Assembly: GCA_951406725.2 (NCBI GenBank)
Contig: CATOCA020000002.1
Span: 186,001 to 250,000, forward strand
DNA length: 64,000 nt
Source: Octopus vulgaris
Lineage: Eukaryota
Reading direction: 5' to 3'
The notes beneath the pieces are model-generated. The model was not told where the DNA came from, searched no databases, and was given only the letters and a program-made list of their open reading frames with translations. The position numbers were made by a program, and so were the translations under genes. Below are positions 23,370 through 56,911 of this stretch, in pieces (positions within the stretch are counted from its first letter, which is position 1; each line of letters starts with the position of its first letter).

Positions 23370-25615
23370 ATCATCATCATCATCATCATCGTTTAACATC
23401 CGCTTTCCATGCTAGCATGGGTTGGACAGTTCAACTGGGGTCTGGGAAGCCAGAAGGCTGCACCAGACCCAGTCTGATCTGGCAGTGTTTCTACAGCTGG
23501 ATGCCCTTCCTAACACCAACCACTCTGTGAGTGTAGTGGGTGCCTTTTACGTGCCACCGGCACAGGTGCCAGACGAGGCTGGCAAACGGCCACGATCGGA
23601 TGGTGCTTTTAACATGCCACCGGCACGGAGGCCAGACGAGGCTGGCAATGGCCACAATCGGATGGTGCTTTTTACGTGCCACCGGCATGGAGGCCAGTTG
23701 GGGCGGCGCTGGCAATGGCCACATTCGGATGGTTCTCTTATGTGCCACCGGCACTGGTATCGCAGCTACAATTTTCATTGATGTTGATCGATTTCGATTT
23801 TGATTTTCACTTGCCTCAACAGGTCTTCACAAGTAGAGTTTTGTGTCCCAAGAAGGGAAGGTATGCATAAGTGGACTGGCTACATCCCAGGTAGAGGCCA
23901 CGGGTTATGGTCTCACTTGTCCTGCCGGGTCTTCCCACGCCAAGCATACTTCCAAAGGTCTCGGTCTCTAGTCATTTCCTTGGTGAGACCTAAAGTTCGA
24001 AGGTCGTGCGTCACCACCTCGTCCCAGGTTTTGCTGGGTCTACCTCTTCCACAGGTACCCTAAACCGCTAGGGTATGGCACTTTTTCACACAACTATCTT
24101 CATCCATTCTCGCCACATGACAATACCAGCGCAAACGTCTCTCTTGCACACCACAACTGATGCTTCTTAGGTCCAACTTTTCTCTCAAGGTACTTACACA
24201 CTGTCGAGTATGAACACTGATATTACACATCTATCGGAGCATACTGGCTTCATTTCTTGCGAGCTTACGCATATCCTCAGCAGTCATGGCCCATGTTTCA
24301 CTGCCATCTAGCATGGCTGTTCATACACATGCATCATACAGTCTGCCTTTTACTCTGAGCGAGAGGCCTTTTGTCACCAGCAGAGGTAAGAGCTCCCTGA
24401 ACTTTGCCCAGGCTATTCTTACTCTAGCAGTTACACTTTCAGCACACCCGCCCCCGCTGCTGACTTGGTCCCCTAGGTAACGGAAGCTATCAACTATTTC
24501 TAGTTTTCCTCCCTGGAATGAGGCGGAAGTTGGTCTCTGCGCATTTTCAGTGTTTATTGCTCCTGAGCATCTGCCACATACAAAAACTATCTTCCTAGTT
24601 AGCCTTCCTTTGACATTGCATCTCTTATGTATCCATAGCTTACACTTGGTGCATCTTATAGAGTTTCTACCAACACCTTTTCTACAGATCGAGCAGGGTC
24701 ATCTACCTGAAGGCATTTGTGATTTGCCTGCCTTCCTACGAAATAGGACTTTGGTTTTAGCTAGGTTGACCCTAAGGCCTTTCGATTCTAATCCTTGTCT
24801 CCACACTTGAAACTTTGCCTCTAGTTCTGATAGTGACTTAGCAATTAGAGCAAGGTCATCAGCGTAGAGGAGCTCCCAGGGGCATCCTGTCTTGAATTCC
24901 TCCGTTATTGCCTGGAGGACTATGATAAATAGGAGGGGGCTAAGAACTGAAGCTTGGTGGACTCCTACCTCTACCCGGAATTCTTCACTGTACTCATTGC
25001 CAACACTCACCTTACAGCGTCCCTGTACATGGCTTGCACAGCTCTCACTAACCATTCATCTATCCCTAGTTTCCTCATTGACCACCAGATAAGGGATTGG
25101 GGGACCATGTCAAAGGCTTTCTCCATGTCAACGAAAGCCAGGTACAGGGGCTTATCTTCGGTTAGGTATTTCTCCTGCTGCTGTCTTACCAGAAATATGG
25201 CATCAGTGGTACTTTTCCCTTGCACGAACCCAAACTGCATCTCATCTAAACTAACTCTCTCTCTAATTAGTTGGGCTTTGACCTTCTCCGTAACCTTCAT
25301 TACCTGATCCAACAGCTTGATACCTCTGTAATTATTTGTATCTAGGGCGTCACCTTTACCTTTGTAGCAGTTGACTATCATGCTGCTACACCAGTCATTG
25401 GGTATGACTCCTTCGTGTATCACTTGGTTAACTATATGGGTGACTAGGCTATAGCCGACACTACCAGATATTTTAAGCATCTCTGCAGTAATTCCTGATG
25501 GGCCTGGGACTTTCCCTGTCTTCATGCTTCTAATTGCCTTAACTACTAAGGAACTGTCAACTCGGATAGCTGGTCCCTCTGTTGGGTTGACATTTGGCAG
25601 ACTCTCTTTATCCCC
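23370..25615 (-). mobile_element. RTE LINE, 5'-truncated (RT, Cys-rich insert, 3' UTR, (GAT)n tail)
   Basis: ORFs 25007-25525 and 24699-25055: YRGIKLL, QFGF, DMEKAFD, HQASVLSP, LYADDL. Confidence 0.92.
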
Positions 25616-25664
25616 TTCTATAAATCCATTATATAAACTAAGTATATTATTAATATGTATTTAT

Positions 25665-28392
25665 TTTTTTTTTATTTTATCTAGTTTCAGCTCATGAGCT
25701 GTGGCCATGCTGGGGCATCGCCAATATCTATAGATTTAATATTTCACACAATAATAAAAATATTACCTAATTATTAAAAAAGGAATACTCTAACGAAACT
25801 AATTCTCAACTCCTGCTGCAGGTGTGCAACATTGCTGGGGTTCTGTATTTTCTGCAAGATTTTCGTATCATCTGCATAGCTTCCCAGAGTGGCTATCTGG
25901 GCATTTGAGGGCATATCTGAGAGGGCCACTATAAAAAGCAGTGGTCCCAAGACAGTGCCCTGTGGAACACCGCTCACTATTTGTGTGTTCATAGAGGTGG
26001 CTCCATTAACCACTACGGCCTGACTCCTACCTTTCAGAAAGTCATGTAACCACTCTCCAAGTTTTCCAGCTTTGCCAAGGTCATGCAGTTTGTGGCATAT
26101 CATATCATGATCTACCTTGTCAAAAGCTTTTGCAAAATCAAGGTATATTACGTCCACATTTGATTTGTTGAGTAACTGCCTCAACACCCAGTCATAATGT
26201 TGTAAGAGCTGGGTCAGGCAGCTCCTACCTGGTCAAAAACCATGCTGGGTATCACTCAGCAAGTTATTTTCCTCAAGGAATGTGATTAGTTTCTTTCTGA
26301 CTATCCGATCCATGATTTTACTGATGTGTGAAGTCAGAGAGATAGGTCTATAGTTTTTGGCATCTGCTCTACTTCCCCCTTTATGTATTGGGCATATTAT
26401 TCCCTCCTTTAGCTTGCTTGGCAGTCTGCCATTTGTAAGAAAGCTCTGGAAGAGAATCTGGAGGGGTTTTGCCAGGGCATGCTTACACGCTTTGAGGAGG
26501 ATTGCTGGGAAACCATCAGGACCAGCAGTTGAGTTTGTGTCCACTTCATCTATGGCTAGTAGTATATCTTCTTCGCTAATGTCAATGTATTCCATTGTAA
26601 CTGCCTTGCTGGTTATAGGTGAGGCAGCAAAGAAGACCACTGGTTCGTTCACTTGTCTGTGTTCTAACGGGGTGGTAAAGACACTTTTGAACTGGTCATT
26701 CAGTATCTCACTGATCTTAGTTGGACTGTCTGTGAGAGAGCTATCCTCTTGAGGAGGGGTCCTATCTTGAAGTGCATTGAGGCTGTTTCTTTCGCGTAAT
26801 GAAAGAAGGCCTTTGTGTTTGACTTAATGTTTTTTATAACCCAGGCTTCTTTGTCTGCGTTCTCCCTCACATAGGATTGTTGCAGCCTTTTTTCAATCTC
26901 CATCAGTGTTGTTTTTAGGCAGGACGTTTCGCTACTTTTGGGATGTTGGTTGAGTCGATTTGCAAACTTCGTCTGTGGTCTCATGAGGATCTTCCTCTCC
27001 CTTGGAATCTTGCTCCTATTTGTTTTGGCCTTGTGTTCTGGGACATATTACTGGCATATGGCTTGCACAGAAGACATGAAACATTCTAGTTTCATGTCAA
27101 TGTCTGGTGTGGAGAGACATTTCAGCCAGTCCTCTCTGAGGATCTCTTTTTGGATTGATTTCCAATCTGCTTTGTGGAAGTTCAGATTGGAGAGATTTCG
27201 GGTGCTTCCTTTAGACTGTATGTCTCTGGTTACTTTCGACCCAAACATAGACAGCTCTATTATGTTGTGATCCAAGACTAATGTCGGTGTCACTTTCACA
27301 TCACGAATGATGTCCATATTGTTCGTGAAGCAGAGATCCAGAATGTTATTTGCCCTAGTTGGTCTGAGTACAGCTTGCTCTATGAATAGGCATTGGTGAG
27401 GTTGAGCAGGGACTCACACCTGTGCTTGCTTGCAATGAGTCATTCCTGAGAGTATGAGACCTTCAGGCCATTTGACGTTGGGGAAGTTGAAATCACACAT
27501 AAGAAATATGGTCACTTGGTGTTCCAGATTCATGAGGATTTCTTTAATTTTTGTGAGGCAATCTTCAAACTTGCCTATAAGGTTTGGGACATCTGGTGGG
27601 CAATATGTATTGCATATGACTATATTATGTTCTCTTATGTATACAATTAGAGTGTCACATACCGAATTTGAGTATGACAGTAAGAGCTGGGGTGTGAGGT
27701 CATCACAGATGTATACAGCAACTCCACCATGGCTCCTTTCCCTTCTGTCTGTTCGCAGTATGGCATAGTTTCGTATGTATACTTCTGCGTCCTCTATATC
27801 AGGGCTGAGGTGAGTTTCCACGAGTGCTATGCATAGGGCTTGATTGCATGCAGTAAGATCTCTCAGGAAAGAAATTTGTTTCTATTTTGATGCAACAGGT
27901 CCTCAATATTTAGTAAAAGTATTGGGGTGACAGCTGTGCAGGCGTTAGAGGAGGCCATCCCGTGTCTGTTGACTGTGGTCTTGCATAGGGGTGGGCAAGG
28001 TTCCTTCTTTGTGCTTAGTATAGCCAGGTTAGCTGCTGTACAATCCTTTGAGCCATGCACAAAAAAGACTCTTGCTCAGCTGCTGCATTCTGCAGAACAT
28101 CTGAGGAGCACACTTCTTTTCTGAATGTTTTCCTTGGAGACATCTGTTGTCCTTCTTCAGTGAAGTTTCTCTTTTTAAGGCCCCTGTAGTTCTGGCAGGG
28201 TGTCGGGTGGGCAAACCGGTAGTTTTTGCCGTCCTCCCCATGCCAACATTTGCCCTGCAGGTAAAATTTGCAGGTTCTTGAGTGCCTTCCAGATTTCTTC
28301 TTTCTTGTAGGGTTTGGGATAGCATAGGATTCTCCATGGGATTTTCTGTTGTTTATTTGGTGGGTCGGGGTTTCGTTTTGGTCGTTTTGCCT
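25665..28392 (-). mobile_element. CR1-like LINE (ORF1 remnant, APE endonuclease, RT, internally deleted 3' end and tail)
   Basis: ETHL, RTDR...HGGVAVY, DFNFP, LDLCF, DHNII, YRPISLTS, DFAKAFD, GVPQGTVLGP, YADD; tail at 25680-25722. Confidence 0.92.
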
Positions 28393-29532: not shown

Positions 29533-29564
<32 letters not shown>

Positions 29565-29846
29565 TTAATTAATAAGGGTGAGAGAATTAGATACTAATTT
29601 AATAGTATATTTATTCAACACCAAGTGGCCTAGTGCTTCGAGAAACCTGGATTATTATAATATTTTATAACATATTATAATATTTTTACAAAATAAATAT
29701 AAGAGAGTGGTCACTATATTGCTCACTCTAGCACCAGTTAATCCAAAAGGTTTCAACCACGAAAATACATGCTTACCATGAAAGTCAGTACGATTGTTAG
29801 CTCACACGGACAGGGCAAATAAAAAATAACAAAAATACAGATTATT

Positions 29847-29926
29847 TTGGGACAATTGTTTCGCTATTAATGAATTAAATGTAATTTTACTTACAAAAAA
29901 AAATCCATTTGTAGCTCGTCAGCCAA
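29847..29926 (-). ncRNA. Type-I hammerhead ribozyme
   Basis: Reverse complement of the motif at 30885-30963. Confidence 0.85.
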
Positions 29927-30884
29927 GACTATCTGGATGAAATCCGCTCAATCACACGCCAGATTTTACCATAACGATAAATACGCGTGTGGTTCAATTG
30001 ATTACATCCGACGTTATAATTCAAATGCCCCAACCAACAGCGCGCCAAACTTACACGGAAAACAAATACAGCATTTAGAAATAAATGCAGCATAATTATA
30101 ATTAATTAATAAGGGTGAGAGAATTAGATACTAATTTAATAGTATATTTATTCAACACCAAGTGGCCTAGTGCTTCGAGAAACCTGGATTATTATAATAT
30201 TTTATAACATATTATAATATTTTTACAAAATAAATATAAGAGAGTGGTCACTATATTGCTCACTCTAGCACCAGTTAATCCAAAAGGTTTCAACCACGAA
30301 AATACATGCTTACCATGAAAGTCAGTACGATTGTTAGCTCACACGGACAGGGCAAATAAAAAATAACAAAAATACAGATTATTTTGGGACAATTGTTTCG
30401 CTATTAATGAATTAAATGTAATTTTAAAATAATCTGTATTTTTGTTATTTTTTATTTGCCCTGTCCGTGTGAGCTAACAATCGTACTGACTTTCATGGTA
30501 AGCATGTATTTTCGTGGTTGAAACCTTTTGGATTAACTGGTGCTAGAGTGAGCAATATAGTGACCACTCTCTTATATTTATTTTGTAAAAATATTATAAT
30601 ATGTTATAAAATATTATAATAATCCAGGTTTCTCGAAGCACTAGGCCACTTGGTGTTGAATAAATATACTATTAAATTAGTATCTAATTCTCTCACCCTT
30701 ATTAATTAATTATAATTATGCTGCATTTATTTCTAAATGCTGTATTTGTTTTCCGTGTAAGTTTGGCGCGCTGTTGGTTGGGGCATTTGAATTATAACGT
30801 CGGATGTAATCAATTGAACCACACGCGTATTTATCGTTATGGTAAAATATGGCGTGTGATTGAGCGGATTTCATCCAGATAGTC

Positions 30885-30963
30885 TTGGCTGACGAGCTAC
30901 AAATGGATTTTTTTTGTAAGTAAAATTACATTTAATTCATTAATAGCGAAACAATTGTCCCAA
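30885..30963 (+). ncRNA. Type-I hammerhead ribozyme
   Basis: ttgg CTGACGA gcta...tagc GAAA caattg TC ccaa; predicted cleavage after 30959. Confidence 0.88.
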
Positions 30964-31420
30964 AATAATCTGTATTTTTGTTATTTTTTATTTGCCCTGT
31001 CCGTGTGAGCTAACAATCGTACTGACTTTCATGGTAAGCATGTATTTTCGTGGTTGAAACCTTTTGGATTAACTGGTGCTAGAGTGAGCAATATAGTGAC
31101 CACTCTCTTATATTTATTTTGTAAAAATATTATAATATGTTATAAAATATTATAATAATCCAGGTTTCTCGAAGCACTAGGCCACTTGGTGTTGAATAAA
31201 TATACTATTAAATTAGTATCTAATTCTCTCACCCTTATTAATTAATTATAATTATGCTGCATTTATTTCTAAATGCTGTATTTGTTTTCCGTGTAAGTTT
31301 GGCGCGCTGTTGGTTGGGGCATTTGAATTATAACGTCGGATGTAATCAATTGAACCACACGCGTATTTATCGTTATGGTAAAATCTGGCGTGTGATTGAG
31401 CGGATTTCATCCAGATAGTC

Positions 31421-31499
31421 TTGGCTGACGAGCTACAAATGGATTTTTTTTGTAAGTAAAATTACATTTAATTCATTAATAGCGAAACAATTGTCCCAA
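31421..31499 (+). ncRNA. Type-I hammerhead ribozyme
   Basis: Identical motif one unit downstream; predicted cleavage after 31495. Confidence 0.88.
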
Positions 31500-31653
31500 A
31501 ATAATCTGTATTTTTGTTATTTTTTATTTGCCCTGTCCGTGTGAGCTAACAATCGTACTGACTTTCATGGTAAGCATGTATTTTCGTGGTTGAAACCTTT
31601 TGGATTAACTGGTGCTAGAGTGAGCAATATAGTGACCACTCTCTTATATTTAT

Positions 31654-31696
<43 letters not shown>

Positions 31697-31909: not shown

Positions 31910-32310
31910 TAGTAATATAAATATTTTATAATTATATACATAATTATAGCAAGGGCTTTGCTTGCACCTCACCACACACTGAAAACTAGACGTCAAAAGA
32001 CACTATTGCCACCGTAAATTCTCCAAGAAAAACACACTGCACATAGGCCAGTAGAAGAAAGAACATGAAATACAAACTTTGGTTAATCCCGTACATGATC
32101 GTGTTTCGGTTAAAGTAATACAAAACTATACCTGTTTGCCCTCATCAGCAACGGTATACCCAACCATATAAACACTCGTATTTATATGGCTGGGTATACC
32201 GTCGCTGATGAGGGCAAAAAGGTAAAGTTTTGTATTACTTTAAGCCCGAAACACGATCATGTATGCATTTAACCAAAGTTTGTAATTCATGTTTTTTCTT
32301 GTACTGTGTG
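31910..32310. mobile_element. Fold-back pseudo-LTR fragment with a hammerhead in both arms (32088-32152 minus, 32201-32266 plus)
   Basis: CTGATGA gggc...gccc GAAA cacgatcat GTA; arms about 32045-32172 and 32181-32305; related copy at 33580-33850. Confidence 0.75.
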
Positions 32311-32332: not shown

Positions 32333-32364
<32 letters not shown>

Positions 32365-32365
<1 letters not shown>

Positions 32366-32545
32366 CATCATTGTCATCGTTTAGCGTCCGCTTTCCATGA
32401 TAGTATGGGTTGGACAGTTCAACTGGGGTCTGGGAAGCTAGAAGGCTGCACCAGGCCAGTCTGATCTGGCAATGTTTCTACAGCTGAATGCCCATCCTAA
32501 TGCCAGCCACTCCGTGAGTGTAGTGGGTGCTTTTTACGTGCCAAT
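32365..32545 (-). mobile_element. RTE 3' tail
   Basis: catcgtttagcgtccgctttccatg...gcccatcctaatgcc. Confidence 0.8.
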
Positions 32546-32565
32546 ACATATATATATATTACTAT

Positions 32566-33141
32566 AGAACTAAGTTTGTAAAAGTTTTTAATTTTCATCT
32601 CATTAAATTTATCCAGCTTTTGTGTATCTAGTACACACTTCGCCTTTTAATGTACTTATATATGAATAATATATGGCGTGTCCTAGAACACCAGCGATAA
32701 TAATTAATTTTATTGTATCGCATTTGACTTTGTTTACGTATTTTCTCGATAAAATTTTGAGCGTTAGACGTTATACCAGAAAACCCTATTTTGTTGGGTA
32801 CGTTCTGAGTCTGCGCAGTGATTTGAATAGTTTAGAAAGAGCAATTTAATAGACGCATGTGCCTCTATTGATGTGCGCTTCCCATAATAACAGGAATCTT
32901 ACTGAAGAGCCTACCTGAGTAAATAAATATTATTTTTATTGCTGAAATAGGCGAAACTGCAGTCTAAGAAGAACTAAGTTTGTAAAAGTTTTTAATTTTC
33001 ATCTCATTAAATTTATCCAGCTTTTGTGTATCTAGTACACACTTCGCCTTTTAATGTACTTATATATGAATAATATATGGCGTGTCCTAGAACACCAGCG
33101 ATAATAATTAATTTTATTGTATCGCATTTGACTTTGTTTAC

Positions 33142-33143
<2 letters not shown>
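32566..33143 (+). mobile_element. ORF-less 404-bp unit plus ~174-bp terminal redundancy with hammerhead; retrozyme-like
   Basis: 32566-32739 is repeated at 32970-33143; flanked by (TA)n. Confidence 0.85.
32897..32969 (+). ncRNA. Type-I hammerhead ribozyme
   Basis: tctta CTGAAGA gccta...taggc GAAA ctgcag TC taaga; all three stems perfect. Confidence 0.9.
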
Positions 33144-33208
<65 letters not shown>

Positions 33209-33226
33209 CAGATATAGATATATATA

Positions 33227-33535
33227 GTGAGTGCAGTGGGTGTTTTTTACGTGCCACCGGCACAGGAGCCAGAGCAGACTGGCAAATGGCCACGATTGGT
33301 TGGTGCTTTTAAGTGTCACCGACACGGACACCAGTCAGGCGACGCTAGTATATGCCACATTCGAACAGCGCTTTTTACATGTCACCGGCACGGGTGTCTT
33401 AACTACAATTTCAATTTGAATTTTGATTTTGATGTTGACGAACTTGACTCAACAGGTCTCCTCAAGAACAGCGGTTCATTCTACGATCCAAGGTTAGCAC
33501 AGCAGGCTGCCCTGCGAGCCATGAACTCACTTCAT
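33227..33535 (-). mobile_element. RTE 3' UTR fragment
   Basis: Minisatellite units tttacgtgccaccggcacagg. Confidence 0.75.
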
Positions 33536-35468: not shown

Positions 35469-38400
35469 TCATCATCATCGTTTAACATCCGTTTTCCATG
35501 CTAGCATGGGTTGGACGGTTCGACCGGGGTCTGGGAAGTCAGGAGGCTGCACCAGGCTCCAGTCTGATCTGGCAGTGTTTCTACAACTGGATGCCCTTCC
35601 TAACGCCAACAACTCCGTGAGTGTAGTGGGTGATTTTTATGTGCCAGGGGAGGCTTGCAACGGCCATGATCGGTTGGTGCATTTTACGTGCTGCCAGCAT
35701 GGAAGCCAGCCATGGTGGCGCTGGCACTGACTGCGTACGGATGGTGCTTTTTACATGCCACCGGCACAGGTGCCAGGGGAGGCTGGAAATGGACACGATC
35801 GGTTGGTGGTTTTTATGTGCCACTGACACGGAAGCCAGTCAAGGCGGTACTGGTATCGGCCACGTATGGACGGTGCTTTTTACATGCCACAGGATAGGCT
35901 GTCAATGGCCACGAACAGTTGGTGCTTTTTATGTGCCACCGGCACGGAAGCCAGTCAAGATGGTGCTGGCATCAGCCACGTACAGATGCTGCTTTTTACG
36001 TGCCACCGGCACAGGTGGCAGGGGAGGCTGGCAGCGGCCTCAATTGGTAGGTGCTTTTTACAAGCTACCGGCACGGAAGCCAGTCAATGCGGCGCTGGCT
36101 TCGGCCATGTACGGATGGTGCATTTGTCATGCCACCGGCACAGGTATCGCAACCACAATTTCCATTTGATTTTTGAATCGGTAGGTCTCCTCAAGCACAG
36201 CAGGTCACCCTACGATCCAAGGCACTTTGGAAGGGTTGGGGCTTCTATGTGAAGCTGGTGTAGGAAACAGCCATGAACTCACATTATTTGTTGGGTCTTC
36301 GCAGTCACAGCATATCTCCAGAGGTCTCGGTCTTCCGTTATTGCCAACATTCGAAGGTCATGCTTGTCTTCCAGGGTCTACTCTACTCCGGATTCCTTCA
36401 ACTTTTTGGGAGTGGCACATCTTCACACATCTCTCCTCATCTATCTGTAGTACATGACCATACCAGCGCAGACACTTTCTTGCATGCCACATCCAATGCT
36501 TCTTATGTCCAGCATTTCTCTCAGGGCACTTACACTCTGTCGGGTATGCACACTGACATTACACATCCAGCGGATCATGCAAGTTTCATTTCTTTCGAGC
36601 CTACGCATGTCCTCTGCACTCACAGACCATGTTTCACTACCATGACGCATGGCAGTTCGTACACATGTGTCATACAATCTACCTTTCATTCTGAGTGAGA
36701 GACCCTTTGTCACCAGTAGGGGTAGGAGCTTTCTGAACTTTACCCAGGCTATTCTTATTCTATTGGTAACACTCTCTGAGCATCCACCCCCACTACTAAC
36801 TTGGTCACCTAGGTAGCGGAAACTATCAACTACTTCTAGTTTCTTCCCCAGGAGTGTAATGGAATCTGTTTTCTCAGTATCAATGGTGTCTATTGCCCCT
36901 GTGCATCTGCTGCACACGAAAGCTATCTTCTCGGTTAATTTTCCTTTGATGTTGCTGCACCTCTTATGTGTCCATAGCATACACTGAGTACATCTTATGG
37001 AGTTTCTACCTAAACCTTTTCTACAGATTGAGCAAGGCCACCTACCTGAGGGTGTGTGTGGCGTGTTTGCCTTCCTACTTACTAGAACTTTGGTTTTTGC
37101 TACATTGGTCTTTGCTACATTGACTCTAAGGCCTTTTGATTCTAAATCTAGCTTCCACACCTGAAATTTCTTTTCTAGTTCTGGTAGTGATTCTATGAGG
37201 GCCAGGTCATCAGCATAGAGGAGCTCCAAGGGGCATCCTGTTTTGAATTCCTCTGTTATTGCCTGGAGGACTATGATGAATAAAAGGGGACTGAGAGCTG
37301 AACCTTGGTGGACCCCTACTTCTATACTCATTGCCAATCCTAACCTTGCTGACAGCCTCTCTGTAGAGGGCCTGTACAGCCTTTATTAACCATTCGACAA
37401 TCTCCAGTTTCCGTATCGCCCACCAGATAAGGGATCGGGGGACCCTGTCAAAGGCTTTCTTCAAGTCCATGAAAGCTATGTAGAGGGGTTTATCTTTAGC
37501 TAGGTATTTCCCCTGCAGTTGTTGAACCAGGAATATGGCATCAGTGGTGCTTCTACCCAGCACAAAACCGAACTGCATCTCATCTAAGCAAACTCTCTCC
37601 CTAATGAGATGGGCTATAACCCTCTCTGTGACCTTCATCACCTGATCCAACAGTTTAATACCCCTGTAGTTATTTCTATCTAGAGCATCACCTTTACTCT
37701 TGTAGCAGTTGACTATGGTGCTGCTACGCCAGTCATTGGGTATGACTCCATTATGAACTACCTGGTTTACAATGCGGGTGACTAGGCCATAGCCCACACC
37801 ACCAGATGTTTTAAGCATCTCAGTAGTGATTCCTGATGGGCTGGGGGGCTTTACCTGGTTTCATACCCTTAATTGCTTTATCTACTAGGGAGCTGTCTAT
37901 TTGGATAGCTGGTCCCTCTACGGGGTCAACATTTGGCAGGCTCCCTCCTCCCATTCATTTTCCACATTCAGCAGTCTCTCATAATGGCTTCTCCAAGCCT
38001 CTTTCTTTTCAGAAACATTGAAAGCAAGTGCATCATCATCCATGCGGACGCATTTCTCTCCTGTGATATCACAATTTTCTCTCACACACTGTCTTGCAAT
38101 CCGAAATACCTCAGTTCATTGGTCCTCATGTTGCTGGACATTGGCAACATTCTTCTTTTTTGCTTCACCCTTGGCTATGTATACCTGCCGCCCAGCCTCC
38201 CTTTTGGCTACCTGGTACAGTTCCCTGCTACCCCCATCCCTCCAGGTTTTCCAGGCCTGTTTCTTTGCTCTAATGGCTTTGTCTACTGTACTATTCCACC
38301 ACCATGTAACTCTAGGTCTGGAAGGGACTTTGCACCATCCACAGACATGTCTGTCTGCAAGCTGTCCCGTAAGAATTTCCAGTTACTTTCTATGTCCGAC

Positions 38401-38982
38401 GTCTGTAACTCCTCCTCCCTCTCATCAAATTTCTTGATGAGGATGTCCCTAAATCTCTGACCATGTGAAGGGTTCTTTAGCTTCCAAATCCTTCTTTTCT
38501 GTATTGGTCTGCTCCTTGGTATCTTTCTGGCCTCAAGCCTAAAGTCACTAATGACTAACCTATGCTGAGGGGTACATTCTTTACCTGGGAGGGTCTTTGT
38601 ATTTAAGAGCAACCCTTCGTCCCGCTGTCTGGTGAGGATGAAATCTATTTGGCTAGCAGAGTCCCCTGACTGATAGGTTAGAAGGTGGCTGTCTGGCTTC
38701 CTGAAGTTAGTGTTGCAGATTAAAAGGTTACATGTATCACAGAATTCCAGTAGTCTAGTTCCCTCATCGTTTCGGGTGCCAATACCATGGCCACCGTGTA
38801 CCCCAGTGAAGATACCCGATTCCTGCCCAACATGCCCATTAAAGTCGCCAGCCACAAAGATGAGGTTATTGCCACTCGTCTTTGAGGTAGCCTGTAGAAG
38901 GGTATCATAAAAGTGGTCCTTCTGATCATTTGGTAACCCCACATGTGGGGCATAGGTAGAGATAATTGTAGCTGTGCCATTA
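35469..38982 (-). mobile_element. Near-complete RTE LINE (APE, RT, PHD-like Cys cluster, 3' UTR minisatellite), frameshifted
   Basis: ORFs 38283-38942 (GDFNGHVG, SQIDFIL, QHRLV), 37210-37818 and 36441-37337 (HQGSALSP, YADD). Confidence 0.93.
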
Positions 38983-39299
38983 TATATATATATATATAAA
39001 TATATATATATAAATAGATGGGTGTATTTTTACCTTATTAACAATTAACACGGGAAAAATAAATAAATAGTTACCAGGGTAGCAAAAATCTCACAAGTAA
39101 AGATGTTGTAACTCCTTGTTTATAAAGGTAGAAACTTTGTGTTTACGTGGATATATTTTGAATAATATATGAATAAATAAATGGAGTTTAACGCTGGTGT
39201 AAATCGAATATTTTTACTTTCGACACATGTTTCGAAAATTCCACTGATACTATTCAAAAGAATAAATGGTATAAACAATGCAATCTTCTTGTTTATGTG

Positions 39300-41749: not shown

Positions 41750-44100
41750 TTAGAGTATGTTTAGTTGTGGTCTGTATTTTTGAATAAGATTACTTTCCCT
41801 ATTTATTCGTGTTTGGTCTGTGGTGTTGTCCGAGCATTGGTATAGTGGGAAGACTAAGAATTTGGGGGACTTATTGTGTGCACAAAGGTCTAAGTGTCCA
41901 CTTAGTGGTATCTGTCTTGTGGAGGGGTCCCTCAGTTGTTGTTGGTGAACTGTCATTCTTTCTCTGAGGGTAAGGCTCGTTTGCCCTATGTAGTCTTCGT
42001 GGCATCCTTCACACCTTATGACGTAGAGTAAATTTTTTGATGCGCATGTGAAATTATTTTTTATGATGAATGTGTGTCCCGACCGGAACTTGTACGTCGA
42101 TCCCTCAATGAGGTGGATGCAAGTCCTGCAGTTGGGGCGACCACATTTTTTGATGGTGGGCGGTGGGTTTGTGTTGTGTAATTTTGCGTTGTTGAGGAGG
42201 TTTTTTAGGGATTTAGGTTGTCTCTTAGTTTTTATTATTTTATGAGCTGCCAGTAATTTTTTCAGGTGTGGGTCTTGATTTAGTTGTGGAATGTTGTTGT
42301 ATATAATAGTGTAAGCTTCTGCATTCCTTGGGTTGTGTGTTGAGAGATAGGGGAGGCTATTTACTGTACTGTGGATGTGTTTAGGTTTTTGTAGGTCTTG
42401 AGTGTTGATTGATTTGGCCTGTTCTATTCCGTTGTCTACTAGTGATGCCGGGTAATGTCTTTCGAGAAGAATTGCCCTTAGTTCCCGGAGTCTTCTATTT
42501 CATGTTGTGTCATTTGAGACAATTGTGCAGATTCTTCTCGCTAGGTTGAAGGGGATATTTGTCTTTGTGTGTTTTGGGTGATTGGAGGTGAATAGAAGGT
42601 ATTGTTTAGAGTCAGTGGGTTTGTAATGGATGTCAGTTTCAATGTTGACGCCTTTTTTAATGATTAGAATGTCAAGAAAAGGGAGTTGGTCCTGACTATA
42701 TTCCATTGTGAATTGAATGTTGTTATTTACACTGTTGATAAGGTTTTTGAAGTCTATAAGTTGGTCGAGTGTGTGGGACCATAGGATGAGGCAATCATCT
42801 AAGTAGCGTTTCCAGTTCTCCAACAGGTATTTGTGGAAAGACTGGCTGTACTTATATTTGGATTTTTCATAGATATGTGATTCCAGGTAGGCCATCACCA
42901 GGTTTGCATAGGTAGGTGCAACTTTCGTACCCATTGCAGTTCCTGAAACCTGTCTGTAAGTGTTGTTATTGAAATACATGAAGTTGTTTTGCAGAATAAA
43001 TTTGAGGCCCTCAATTATGAATTCTTTTTTTATTCTTTCCGGGATCTCATTGGGATATTTATCCAGCCAGAATTTAATGGCTTCCAGTCCATATTCATGT
43101 GGGATTGTGGTGTAAAGATTAATTACATCAAAGGAAACGATTAAAGTGTCTTTATCGGTATGTTTGGGGAGATGATTTAATAGGTCCAGGTCATCTCTTA
43201 CAATACTTGGAATGTGTTTCAGTATTGGTTTTAGGATGATATCTATAAAGTTGCTAAGTCTGTGTGTTTCACAACTTGGGCCTGCCACTATTGGTCTCAG
43301 TTTGAGATCAGTGGGATGTGGTATAGTGATGCAGGTTGAAGTGGACTTTTTGCAAGCTTCTGTGATAATTTGACTCTTGTGTATTTTTGGAAGCCCATAG
43401 AGTGTGCTGGTTTTGCAATTAAAGTTTGTAATGTAGTCGCATTCCTTTGCTGTTAAGTCATTCCGGTGTTGGTAAATGAGTGCCTTCAGTTTGGTCATTG
43501 TTTTGGATTGCTGGTAGTCGACTACTCTTTCATAGTATGTGGTATCCTCTAAAAGGAGAGATACAGAGTTTTTATACTGCTCAGTATTCATAATAACGAC
43601 CGTACTACCCTTATCAGCTTCCTTTATTGTGACGTCATGATTGTCTCGTAGCGTATGGATGATTTCCCATTCTCTTTTACTGGTGTTGGGTTTGGGTTTA
43701 GGTTGTGGGAGTTCACCATAAGGGAAGTTTGAGATGTAATCGCAAAATTTGTCTAAGGTTTTGTTTTTGCCTTTTACGGGATTATAGCTGCTTTTGTTAC
43801 GGACCATTGATTCGTCGTTATTATTAGTTTCCTTGTCAAAGAATTCCTCTGTGAGTCGTAATTTTCTGCAAAAGTGTGAGATGTCATCCTGTATTTCCCT
43901 CAGGTTAGGGTATTGCGGAGTTGGGGTGAATTTTAGTCCTCTTGAAAGGATTTTTATTTGTGGTGTTGACAGGTTTAGGTTAGAAAGATTCACTATTTTT
44001 GGTTTTTCGGGGTTGGTATCTACCATCTGGTGTCGTGGAAACTGATGCCCTTGCCTAAAAAAGGAATCCTGGGGGTTCTTCTATCTGCGGTATTTTGCTG
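41750..44100 (-). mobile_element. Young Neptune-like PLE; RT + GIY-YIG ORF of about 758 codons broken by one TGA at 42500-42502
   Basis: LSRGLKFTP, EADKG, YGLPKIHK, RPIV, GTAMG, RYLDD; in-frame continuation KCGRPNCRTC, LLYVIRC, YIGQT, H...H. Confidence 0.93.
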
Positions 44101-44109
44101 TATGTGATT

Positions 44110-44258
44110 ATATATACATGTAATGTGGCAATTTGCAACAACCAATAATTAACGCAACCAAACTTCCATATGTTACTTTTGACAATCTTTTTCCAAAGAG
44201 TGAAACCGGTTAAGTAAATAAACATCTTTTAAATTGCATTTTCAAACCTTCTTTCGTA
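44110..44258 (+). repeat. Pseudo-LTR end copy with variant hammerhead (44173-44217); duplicate of 45484-45632
   Basis: ttactt TTGACAA tcttt ttcc aaaga gt GAAA ccgg TT aagtaa. Confidence 0.65.
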
Positions 44259-44269
44259 TATATATATAT

Positions 44270-47699: not shown

Positions 47700-49575
47700 T
47701 ATATATTTTTTAGGGAATAATAATTCTGGCATAACAGAGGTTCAAATTATTCTCAATGAAGAAATATATTTTAATTTAGAGATAGTATATACCCCTACTT
47801 TTCACCAAATAAAAAGAATTTTTATTTTTACTTTAAATACCTACTGTTTTAGTACTTGGCAACACGTGTTTCATGAGGTACATCCTCGGGTTCTTAAACC
47901 ACTCCGTGTTTCCCTGGAACCCCTCTCAAGATGCAACCCCAATCATCAGGCCCTTATATAACTTTATCAACGTTCAATACAATAAACTATATTTTAATTT
48001 ATAAATCCCATAAATATGTGCAAAATAAGTATGTTTAAATTAGGTATGTTTAGTTTCGCTGGACTCTACAGTACAAGCCATAATTCAGATAAAAATTCAA
48101 ATAAAGATAAAAAGTTACAGAAATAAAAGTTACACGAATAAAGTAAGGAATAAAAATCACAAAAAAATATACGTAAATTTACAAAAACTATGTTAGTTAT
48201 ATATAGTGTTCCAAATAAAATTAAATTTACAAATACTATGTTAATAATATATAAAAAATGTGAACAGAAATAATGAAAGTAATACGAATAAAAGTAAATA
48301 CAAGTAACAATAAAAATAAAAATAAAAATAAAGAGCTCATAAGCTGAAACTGGAAAAATCAAAATCAAAATCAAAATCAATAAAAATAAACGGGATGGCA
48401 AGGAAAATATACACGAATAAAAGTTAATAAACATGGAGGCAATTACGAAAAGATAATTTCAAATAAAAGTTCTAATACGAACTGCAAAATTTCAAGTGAT
48501 ACGAATGGTAACTTTTTTTTAAAATTTACAAAGTAAAATAAAATAAAATAAATATAACTTGATGGTAAAGTAAGGAAAATATGCAATTCACTGATAGCTC
48601 CATTATCCTACAACATCCTAATTATGGCCCAACATTGCAAAGTCCAGTGAAGTACTCACACCCTATTCCCTGCTACTTTAAAATCTTATTTAATTAACAT
48701 ATTGTCTAAATAGTAAAACATAGTTCATGAAGCTTAAAAAATGCATCATGGGAATATTGCTTTCTTTATTTTGTATAATTCCGTATTATTCTGCCCATTC
48801 AATCACTCATTAGTTATTATTCATCCCCCCATCTAATGGTAAGTTTTTATTTCTATTAAAAAATTATATAATTATAGTATTAACAATACTTACGCTAAAA
48901 TTTAGGGTTATGCGTTATTAATAAGGCATTTTAGTCTATGTTTACATTTAATTTTACGTTCATCCTGAGCATTAAGAAGTTCTGTTTTAGCCTATAATAT
49001 CGCCATGAATTCATGGGTACATAATAAACATGACCTATTTCCTATTCTATAAGAATAGCTTTACATATTATCTCCCACTTTAATTCATAATTAATTTCTT
49101 TCATTTTTAAACTCCAAACGTATTTACTTAGTCCTGTAGAATTCCTAAGTTTCTTATTTTTACATGAATTCAAGTGCTGTGCTATTCGCTGTTTAATTTT
49201 ATTCGAAGTCAAACCTATGTACATTCTATCTGGGTATTTTTCAATATCTGTATTATTTATACCACTATTTTCATTCCCATCTCCTTTTACCAAAACCACA
49301 CATTTATATACTACATCACTAACATTACATCTTCCATTAAATTGGCTTTTATCTCTACAGGTACAACTATTATGGTCTCTATAACTCCTATTCATATCCT
49401 TATTTAATTTGTCATGGTAATATTTATTCAACCTATGCTTATTAATTGATGATATAATATTCCCTACGTTATTAGTCGTTGAGTACCCCACTCCTATATT
49501 ATTTTTAGAGAGTATTTTGATATATTTTTTATTTTCCATAATAAACGATTCAATTGTGTTAGTAATATCTTTACT
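47700..49575 (-). mobile_element. Naiad-like PLE 3' part with pseudo-LTR
   Basis: ORF 49042-49539: CTCRDK, VVYKC, YIGLT...KQRI, STGLSKYVW. Confidence 0.88.
47858..47952 (-). ncRNA. Type-I hammerhead ribozyme
   Basis: ggc CTGATGA ttggggttgcatc...gatgtacctcat GAAA cacgtg TT gcc. Confidence 0.75.
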
Positions 49576-49577
49576 GA

Positions 49578-50564
49578 TTTATCTCGAAAAACTGTGTCTC
49601 GTCGTTTAGTTGAACATGATCTACAAGCAAGATCACCTGCAGTGAAGCCACTGATCAGCTCCAAGAATAAAAAGTGTCATCTTACCTTTGCAACCGAACA
49701 TGTGTTGTGGTCTCAAGAAAAATGGCAAATGGTGCATTTCAGTGATGAATCTAAGTTTATGTTATTTGGCTCAAATGGGAAAAGGTACGTTAATCGAAAA
49801 GTAGGTGAAAAATTGTCGCCTAAATGCCTTAAGACTAGTATTAAATTTGGTGGATGAAGTGTCATGGTTTGGGGGATGATATCTGGAGATGGTGTGGGCC
49901 CTTTGGTGCGATTACATGGAAAGGTAAATGCAGGAGTTTATAAACAACTTGTAAAAGATCATGTCTTGCCTGTGCTGAGAAATTCAACTAAGCGACCACC
50001 TATATTCATGCAGGACAATGCCCCATGTCACAAGGTGGTCATGAACTTCCTCAAGGCTGAAAAGGTTATTGTTATGGATTGGCCTGCTCAAAGCCCAGAT
50101 CTCAATCCTATTGAAAATGTGTGGAATATTCTAGGAGAACGTTTGAAAGCCAGAAATCCTAAAACAAGTGAGCAATTATGGAATGCCCTTCGAGAAGAAT
50201 GGAATAAGATCACCCAGCAAGAAATTGAAAATTTAATTTCCTCATGCAGTCGAAGATGTCAAAGTGTGATTGAAGCTAAAGGGCTTCACACTAAATATTA
50301 AATAATTCCAGTATTCTCTGTCATTTTTTATTATTTTGTTATTTTTTCAACCGTTCTGATCATTTTGGCCACCATGGGTTCTGCAGTAAATCACTAAATC
50401 ATCCATAACTTTTGTATTATCCTCTCAAATTACACTAAAACCTCAGACAATAACAATTAATATCGTATTTATTGTCTGTGAAAATTATAAAACAATTTTG
50501 ATAAAAACTTATACCTACTTTTCTGACAAAAACAATGCCATTCTGAACATTTTGGCCGCAACTG
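49578..50564 (+). mobile_element. 5'-truncated Tc1 transposon (DDE transposase with one stop) and 3' IR-DR type TIR
   Basis: HFSDESKF, KFGG*SVMVWG, FMQDNAPCH, SPDLNPIENVW; inner repeat ttctgatcattttggcc (about 50353) and outer ttctgaacattttggccgcaactg|TA. Confidence 0.93.
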
Positions 50565-56820: not shown

Positions 56821-56911
56821 TTTTAGTACAATCGTTTCATACAAGGACAGGTTTTATTAAAAGTTGCAAAAATTACAGCATATAAACGTGTCCCGTACTC
56901 ATCAGCTAAAA
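56821..56911 (-). ncRNA. Type-I hammerhead ribozyme
   Basis: Reverse complement of 57844-57934. Confidence 0.85.

Follow-up and report, generated by a model that had tools for sequence, protein, structure and literature searches.

Non-LTR retrozymes of metazoans have been described from coral, mussel and axolotl; circular RNAs have been shown, and a helper role has been proposed for Penelope-like elements (PLEs) (PMC7229834, PMC7761336, PMC4209133). The retrozyme circles shown in mussel are 350-390 nt long (PMC7229834). A 2026 preprint ties retrozymes to the pseudo-LTRs of PLEs and reports cleavage in one of nine dimers tested (10.64898/2026.07.22.740005). In Penelope elements (Craig et al. 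2021, PMC8557442), the 3′ end is fixed and the 5′ side truncated, and partial tandems, inverted arms and (TA)n occur. In vitro, the purified Poseidon of Anolis cuts AT-rich DNA on both strands, and both strands prime (Frangieh et al. 2024, PMC11167929); it initiates internally, at two sites located downstream of its hammerhead, uses uncleaved RNA and does not require cleavage. Mobilisation of animal retrozymes by PLEs and via circles has been proposed in print, but the texts consulted do not demonstrate it from the anatomy of the insertions. Within the literature covered, one search being thinly sampled, no literature on retrozyme insertion ends or on cephalopod retrozymes was found.

Here we analysed a window of 64,000 nt from Octopus vulgaris (contig CATOCA020000002.1, positions 186,001 to 250,000 of the forward strand), in which positions are counted from the first letter. 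The element under study is a young copy of a small mobile repeat that encodes no protein and carries an RNA motif predicted to cut itself; its class is already known, and the 404-nt family to which it belongs is a newly found member. The family resembles the metazoan non-LTR retrozymes, as portrayed in the main texts of Cervera and de la Pena (2020) and Li, Clavereau and Pollet (2026), in its AT-rich unit, which is non-coding and measures a few hundred bp, its single type I hammerhead per unit, its tandem or solo copies, its size close to that of the mussel repeats (350-390 bp) and the co-occurrence of PLEs. Measured against the criteria for retrozymes, among them a unit of ~150-450 bp, or as much as 972 bp according to the 2026 preprint (10.64898/2026.07.22.740005), the family has a short non-coding unit, unit following directly upon unit, and somewhere at least two consecutive hammerheads. 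Unlike the described retrozymes, it consists mostly of dispersed copies ranging from less than one unit to two units, and its stem II extension is long; circles have been shown in mussel, and the expression, cleavage and circles of the 404-nt family are putative. With PLEs including Poseidon, as far as these are described in the same sources, it shares a fixed 3′ end located inside the RNA downstream of the hammerhead, 5′ truncation, partial tandems and AT-rich or (TA)n targets, but it differs from them in having no ORF, one start zone instead of two and rarely inverted 5′ arms.

The window copy and its surroundings comprise the following features:
32514-32543, plus strand: left copy of a 30-bp host-repeat duplication, 28/30 identical to the right copy
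32544-32565, no strand: short TA-like spacer at the 5′ junction
32566-33145, plus strand: whole retrozyme insertion of 580 nt, 5′-truncated at +6 after the predicted cut, with the fixed 3′ end at about +178 to +181
32566-32969, plus strand: one full 404-nt unit, non-coding
32970-33145, plus strand: terminal redundancy, an exact repeat of 32566-32741 and putatively the part copied first
33137-33145, plus strand: family-wide fixed 3′ end (+173 to +181), the putative start of reverse transcription
33143-33226, no strand: (TA)n tract at the 3′ end of the copy
33227-33256, plus strand: right copy of the 30-bp host-repeat duplication, where the interrupted host repeat resumes

A preliminary description of this locus had reported a 404-bp unit with a repeat of its first ~174 bp, a hammerhead and (TA)n, all of which were recovered in place. 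The period-404 identity is free of mismatches over 176 nt (32566-32741 and 32970-33145), and the last 2-3 letters of the repeat blend into the TA tract. On the 404-nt ring, the longest stop-free stretches are 59 aa (plus strand) and 67 aa (minus strand). The insertion indeed starts about 6 nt after the predicted cut and, because of this start, contains a single hammerhead; monomer release would be impossible from such a copy, which would be a dead end. The absence of a sequence relationship with a 536-bp hammerhead family in the same window was likewise confirmed, as comparison of the two units yielded no meaningful similarity (best blastn E 0.37). Moreover, the reversed pattern had no matches in the genome compared to 100 for the real pattern, and the 404-nt family is therefore not a product of chance. 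The interrupted host repeat, SINE-like in our reading, begins near 32355, and its paralogues have no TA tract at the place of insertion. The TA sequence around the window copy may derive from an older event or may have been made during insertion. Target duplications of 30-44 bp with two mismatches each frame the insertion together with its TA tracts in the window copy and in loci L044 and L078.

The hammerhead is made up of these elements:
32897-32969, plus strand: predicted type I hammerhead, cut predicted after 32964 (GUC)
32897-32901/32965-32969, plus strand: stem I, UCUUA/UAAGA
32902-32908, plus strand: core CUGAAGA
32909-32913/32948-32952, plus strand: stem II, 5 bp, with a long AU-rich extension
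32953-32956, plus strand: GAAA
32958-32961, plus strand: palindromic loop UGCA of helix III, closed by an A-U and a C-G, two pairs

This motif had been called perfect. The type I core and stems were found at the proposed position, but the term overstates the case, as helix III is weak and the free fold of the stretch is a non-catalytic alternative (−15.4 kcal/mol versus −9.5 kcal/mol for the constrained hammerhead). The Rfam model RF00163 (Hammerhead_1) matched 32896-32970 at E 1e-4; its score of 30.6 bits falls short of the gathering threshold of 34, and scanning the whole window against Rfam gave no hit at gathering level; in locus L020 the model matched once per unit. Rfam microRNA matches, also below threshold, originated from hairpins and TA tracts and were dismissed. 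Helix III, consisting of two pairs and a palindromic tetraloop, does not fold by itself, and a duplex of two helix III strands was calculated at −11.1 kcal/mol. This combination, which is also found in the axolotl HHR_Amex1 (PMC7229834), suggests that cleavage would probably proceed as a hammerhead dimer, in the manner reported for hammerheads with weak helix III (PMC7229834, PMC4209133). Within subfamily B, conservation of the hammerhead does not exceed that of the remaining unit (5.0% versus 3.6%).

Searching the source genome (2.8 Gb) at the DNA level assigned the 404-nt family to subfamilies with 95-100% and ~89% identity. As a list of top-scoring loci favours copies covering the whole query, the family was resampled with anchors; since the 404-nt query also favours starts near its first base, top-scoring loci were kept out of the end statistics unless they were matched by an anchor as well. 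Set A was obtained with a 19-mer anchor at +155 to +173 (100 matches in 81 loci, all mapped) and set B with a degenerate anchor for subfamily B (first 100 of 174 matches, representing 78 loci, of which 64 were mapped). Set H was obtained with a hammerhead anchor (122 matches), and 20 of its loci outside sets A and B were mapped. After exclusion of the complex inverted locus L172, 164 mapped loci were available in total; L015 and L016, probably one duplicated insertion, were counted twice in the end statistics. The mapped copies are 23-2319 nt long, with a median of 285 nt in sets A and B, and two complete hammerheads are present in 13 of 141 copies. The unit of 404 or 401 nt is closed, and tandems reach 5.8 units (L288, subfamily B).

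The real rule of the 404-nt family is a fixed 3′ end. It is located at +162 to +182 after the predicted cut in 161 of the 164 loci, mostly in (TA)n, the three exceptional ends lying at +2, +27 and +136; in set H, which was not chosen by a 3′ anchor, all 20 loci had the fixed 3′ end. TA-rich sequence directly follows 147 of the 164 copies, and in 144 (TA)3 occurs at most 30 nt upstream. The positions of the 5′ ends are scattered, stops being more common where TA microhomology exists at the junction. An empty-site paralogue was found for 14 of the 164 loci; most of these sites already carry TA-like tracts, whereas those of L001, L078 and perhaps L066 do not. From this footprint of fixed 3′ end, 5′ truncation, partial tandem and (TA)n, which is of the PLE type, we infer a Penelope-type enzyme. 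Coding elements with both reverse transcriptase and GIY-YIG and with long open frames exist in this genome, and degenerate pieces of PLE reverse transcriptase adjoin the same TA tracts as the 404-nt family.

The family is probably a non-LTR retrozyme that borrows a Penelope-like reverse transcriptase, with a fixed internal start ~176 nt past the cut from which synthesis likely proceeds round a circular RNA. According to this model, the minority of loci with two hammerheads would be transcribed and cut, probably as a hammerhead dimer, and the monomer would be ligated into a circle, whose lone hammerhead would be a poor cutter. A Penelope-type GIY-YIG endonuclease would nick TA repeats, and reverse transcription would start at +173 to +181 in UA-rich RNA and stop approximately at random, with help from TA microhomology and with a slightly raised frequency once a full lap has been completed. 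For the window copy, the stop would have occurred after 1.44 laps, 6 nt short of the second pass of the cut site. The earlier proposal of reverse transcription from a circular or tandem RNA is supported in its choice of template, but not in its assumption that insertions start at the cleavage site.

Several observations bear on the shape of the template. With TA microhomology allowed for, 5′ ends at one lap were in excess (11 versus 4.2 expected, OR 2.6, p 0.008), in an interval picked after subfamily A had been seen; subfamily B alone gave 5 versus 1.6 (p 0.025). This interval coincides with a TA-like stretch, and the intervals 535-550 and 660-685 showed higher ratios on fewer copies. L156 and L161, which have odd 3′ ends, are also about one lap long. 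Laps within one locus differ by 0.6% in subfamily A (20 loci) and 1.2% in subfamily B (23 loci), compared to 2.6% and 4.9% between loci, and variants shared by the laps and private to one sampled locus numbered 6 and 9, respectively. Such identity of laps also follows from a homogeneous tandem source. On these sequence patterns, a circular template appears the better choice for the 404-nt family. The 404-nt ring folds slightly better than shuffled sequences (z −1.65 circular, −1.54 linear) and is not unusually structured, and no excess of A>G over T>C was found as a sign of editing of the template RNA (9 versus 13; 20 versus 27). Sequence words of this stretch occur in sequencing runs from four organisms, and none of the runs listed is on record as RNA. 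Contigs of runs presumed to be RNA cover the 404-nt unit, and four contig sets contain neither joints nor ends, contigs being unable to display RNA ends or circles; neither observation enters the argument. The contigs of two runs include diverged relatives.

Instead of a circle, the Penelope-type internal start might be made on a linear tandem transcript that stays uncleaved and stems from a small number of multimeric source loci, with the hammerhead being slow or incidental. Tandem loci such as L288 in subfamily B could supply this transcript, the weak helix III predicts poor cleavage, and the anole element works from unprocessed RNA in vitro (PMC11167929). Furthermore, the laps are discordant in L175 (14 differences in 259 nt) and L133 (11 in 399). 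However, this reading leaves the excess of 5′ ends at one lap without a reason, tandem sources are few, the longest copy of subfamily A among 81 anchor loci being shorter than two units, and locus-private variants are common to the laps. We regard it as rather unlikely, though worth serious consideration.

Far less probable is that the unit represents the pseudo-LTR of a coding Penelope element, all copies being truncated forms of that element. In Xenopus, PLE termini are matched by retrozymes (bioRxiv 10.64898/2026.07.22.740005), and PLE protein matches occur in the flanks of 15 of 170 loci. Nevertheless, units run directly into units, up to 5.8 laps in succession, before a copy ends in TA, and in the three PLE matches that were inspected, TA tracts or other sequence intervene between the match and the element. 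An ORF for reverse transcriptase and GIY-YIG joined to the 404-nt unit was found in none of the 164 loci, which include part of subfamily B, in agreement with the initial view that the unit is not the terminal piece of a long coding PLE. An origin of the 404-nt unit from a pseudo-LTR is possible. The PLE family present in the window was considered as partner and rejected, as the unit and 30 loci of that family have no similarity.

The near-cut start of the window copy had led to the proposal that insertions begin at the cleavage site as a general rule. Such a rule would be expected if self-cleaved linear monomers were the template, longer copies then requiring template jumps. Apart from the window copy (+6), 5′ ends close to the cut were found in L011 (+8), L026 (−2) and L027 (+1), the last belonging to the biased set of top-scoring matches, and L003 (G000:C1, near 98061434) is the sole copy whose 3′ end is located at the predicted cut, followed by TA. 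Among the 126 copies of sufficient length, however, only 4 5′ ends fell within 10 nt of the cut compared to 7.4 expected (OR 0.72, p 0.5), so that the test suggested with the proposal went against it, and the predicted cut site was crossed 113 times without a break in 141 copies. For the 536-bp family, which had been thought to share the rule, stops at most 10 nt from the cut numbered 2 versus 2.5 expected (70 pieces, 40 loci); a near-cut excess in a first, multimer-biased sample of this family was gone in the end-anchored sample. That a further class of copies might have its 3′ end at the cut was likewise rejected, as the cut-plus-TA junction matches once in the genome; L003 itself possibly reflects priming on a cleaved RNA end. 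In the loci sampled, the scatter of the 5′ ends refutes linear monomers as the template, and we give this reading next to no credence. Because the copies have fixed right and scattered left ends, the start of the window copy beside the predicted cut is a matter of chance. The element is thus real and was correctly spotted, whereas its mechanism was placed at the wrong end, and a tempting false rule is removed. Equally implausible is spread at the DNA level, by satellite amplification or reinsertion of circular DNA, to which the high identity of tandem units within a locus would fit, but a fixed end opposite a truncated one, oriented according to the hammerhead strand, together with TA flanks, is characteristic of target-primed reverse transcription.

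The 536-bp family allowed a comparison within the same window, where it occupies one locus:
29561-31656, no strand: head-to-head arms of the 536-bp hammerhead family, minus arm 29561-30426 to +290, plus arm 30426-31656 to +161

This family and a 419-nt sister family are like the 404-nt family in having a hammerhead unit, TA flanks, fixed 3′ ends and scattered 5′ ends. Unlike the 404-nt family, both are usually two-armed, with ends at +161/+291 and about +110/+190, respectively. Exact junction matches for the two fixed 3′ ends of the 536-bp family numbered 432 (+161) and 855 (+291). Among 47 +161 ends listed, 22 are accompanied by a +291 partner that lies head to head and no more than 15 kb away; a 161-161 pair was not seen, and the single 291-291 pair was distant and convergent. 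The claim that both families share the same geometry did not hold, as an inverted arm is present in 25 of 40 loci of the 536-bp family, compared to both-strand pieces in 5 of 150 loci of the nearly always one-armed 404-nt family. Four of these both-strand loci were inspected, two being explained by neighbouring copies of the sister family, one having a clean second arm (L131) and one being complex. The paired ends of the 536-bp family amount to a 130-nt version of the Penelope tail, and long arrays occur.

The sister family (L293-L321; 1382 first-look candidates) has a unit of 419 nt with a hammerhead and is 67-70% identical to the 404-nt family in blast alignments spanning most of the ring. 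Its stem I reads UCCCA/UGGGA in place of UCUUA/UAAGA, and the closing pair of stem II is A-U in place of G-C; these two-sided changes support the hammerhead fold. Helix III of the sister is a stable hairpin. Its fixed ends are located at about +105-111 and +182-194; counted with a query that favoured the upstream end, 15 of the 28 distinct loci showed head-to-head pairing. In alignment, the downstream end corresponds to the 3′ end of the 404-nt family and is homologous to it. An 11-nt segment directly preceding the upstream end is absent from the 404-nt unit. L131 keeps such a segment, but the end of its second arm is at ~+73 instead of at the homologous site; the link between the segment and a second start is therefore a lead only. 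One might speculate, and we do so with considerable doubt, that a Penelope-type reverse transcriptase circles one RNA from a set point, that the 404-nt and 419-nt families form a natural mutant pair, and that the 11-nt segment is perhaps a signal for second-strand priming. If true, this would pin down the cis signal responsible for the inverted 5′ copies and the 'tail' of Penelope, which lack an explanation. The young 404-nt family provides a dataset for the start site, the read-through of the cut and the one-lap stop, together with a sister that differs in the number of start sites.

The window further contains a 5′-truncated PLE at 41753-44077 (minus strand), encoding a reverse transcriptase with a C-terminal GIY-YIG domain and one in-frame stop near 42500, and a second GIY-YIG piece at 49045-49578 (minus strand). 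Many genome copies of this PLE family possess open frames of 776 aa with 97-98% identity. A degenerate hammerhead-like stretch at about 44175-44260 (plus strand), which ends in (TA)n, is fused to the PLE where the 5′ end of the latter is truncated; it was considered as the end of the adjacent coding PLE and rejected, being absent from 29 other loci of this element. Further hammerhead-like cores with a long stem II were noticed at 32205 and 57850 (plus strand) and at 56905 and 23327 (minus strand), two of them in inverted structures. Broken LINE-type pieces with matches to reverse transcriptase, endonuclease and PHD, as well as a DDE_3 transposase piece, are located at 24324-27881 and 36444-39029 (minus strand) and at 49858-50298 (plus strand).
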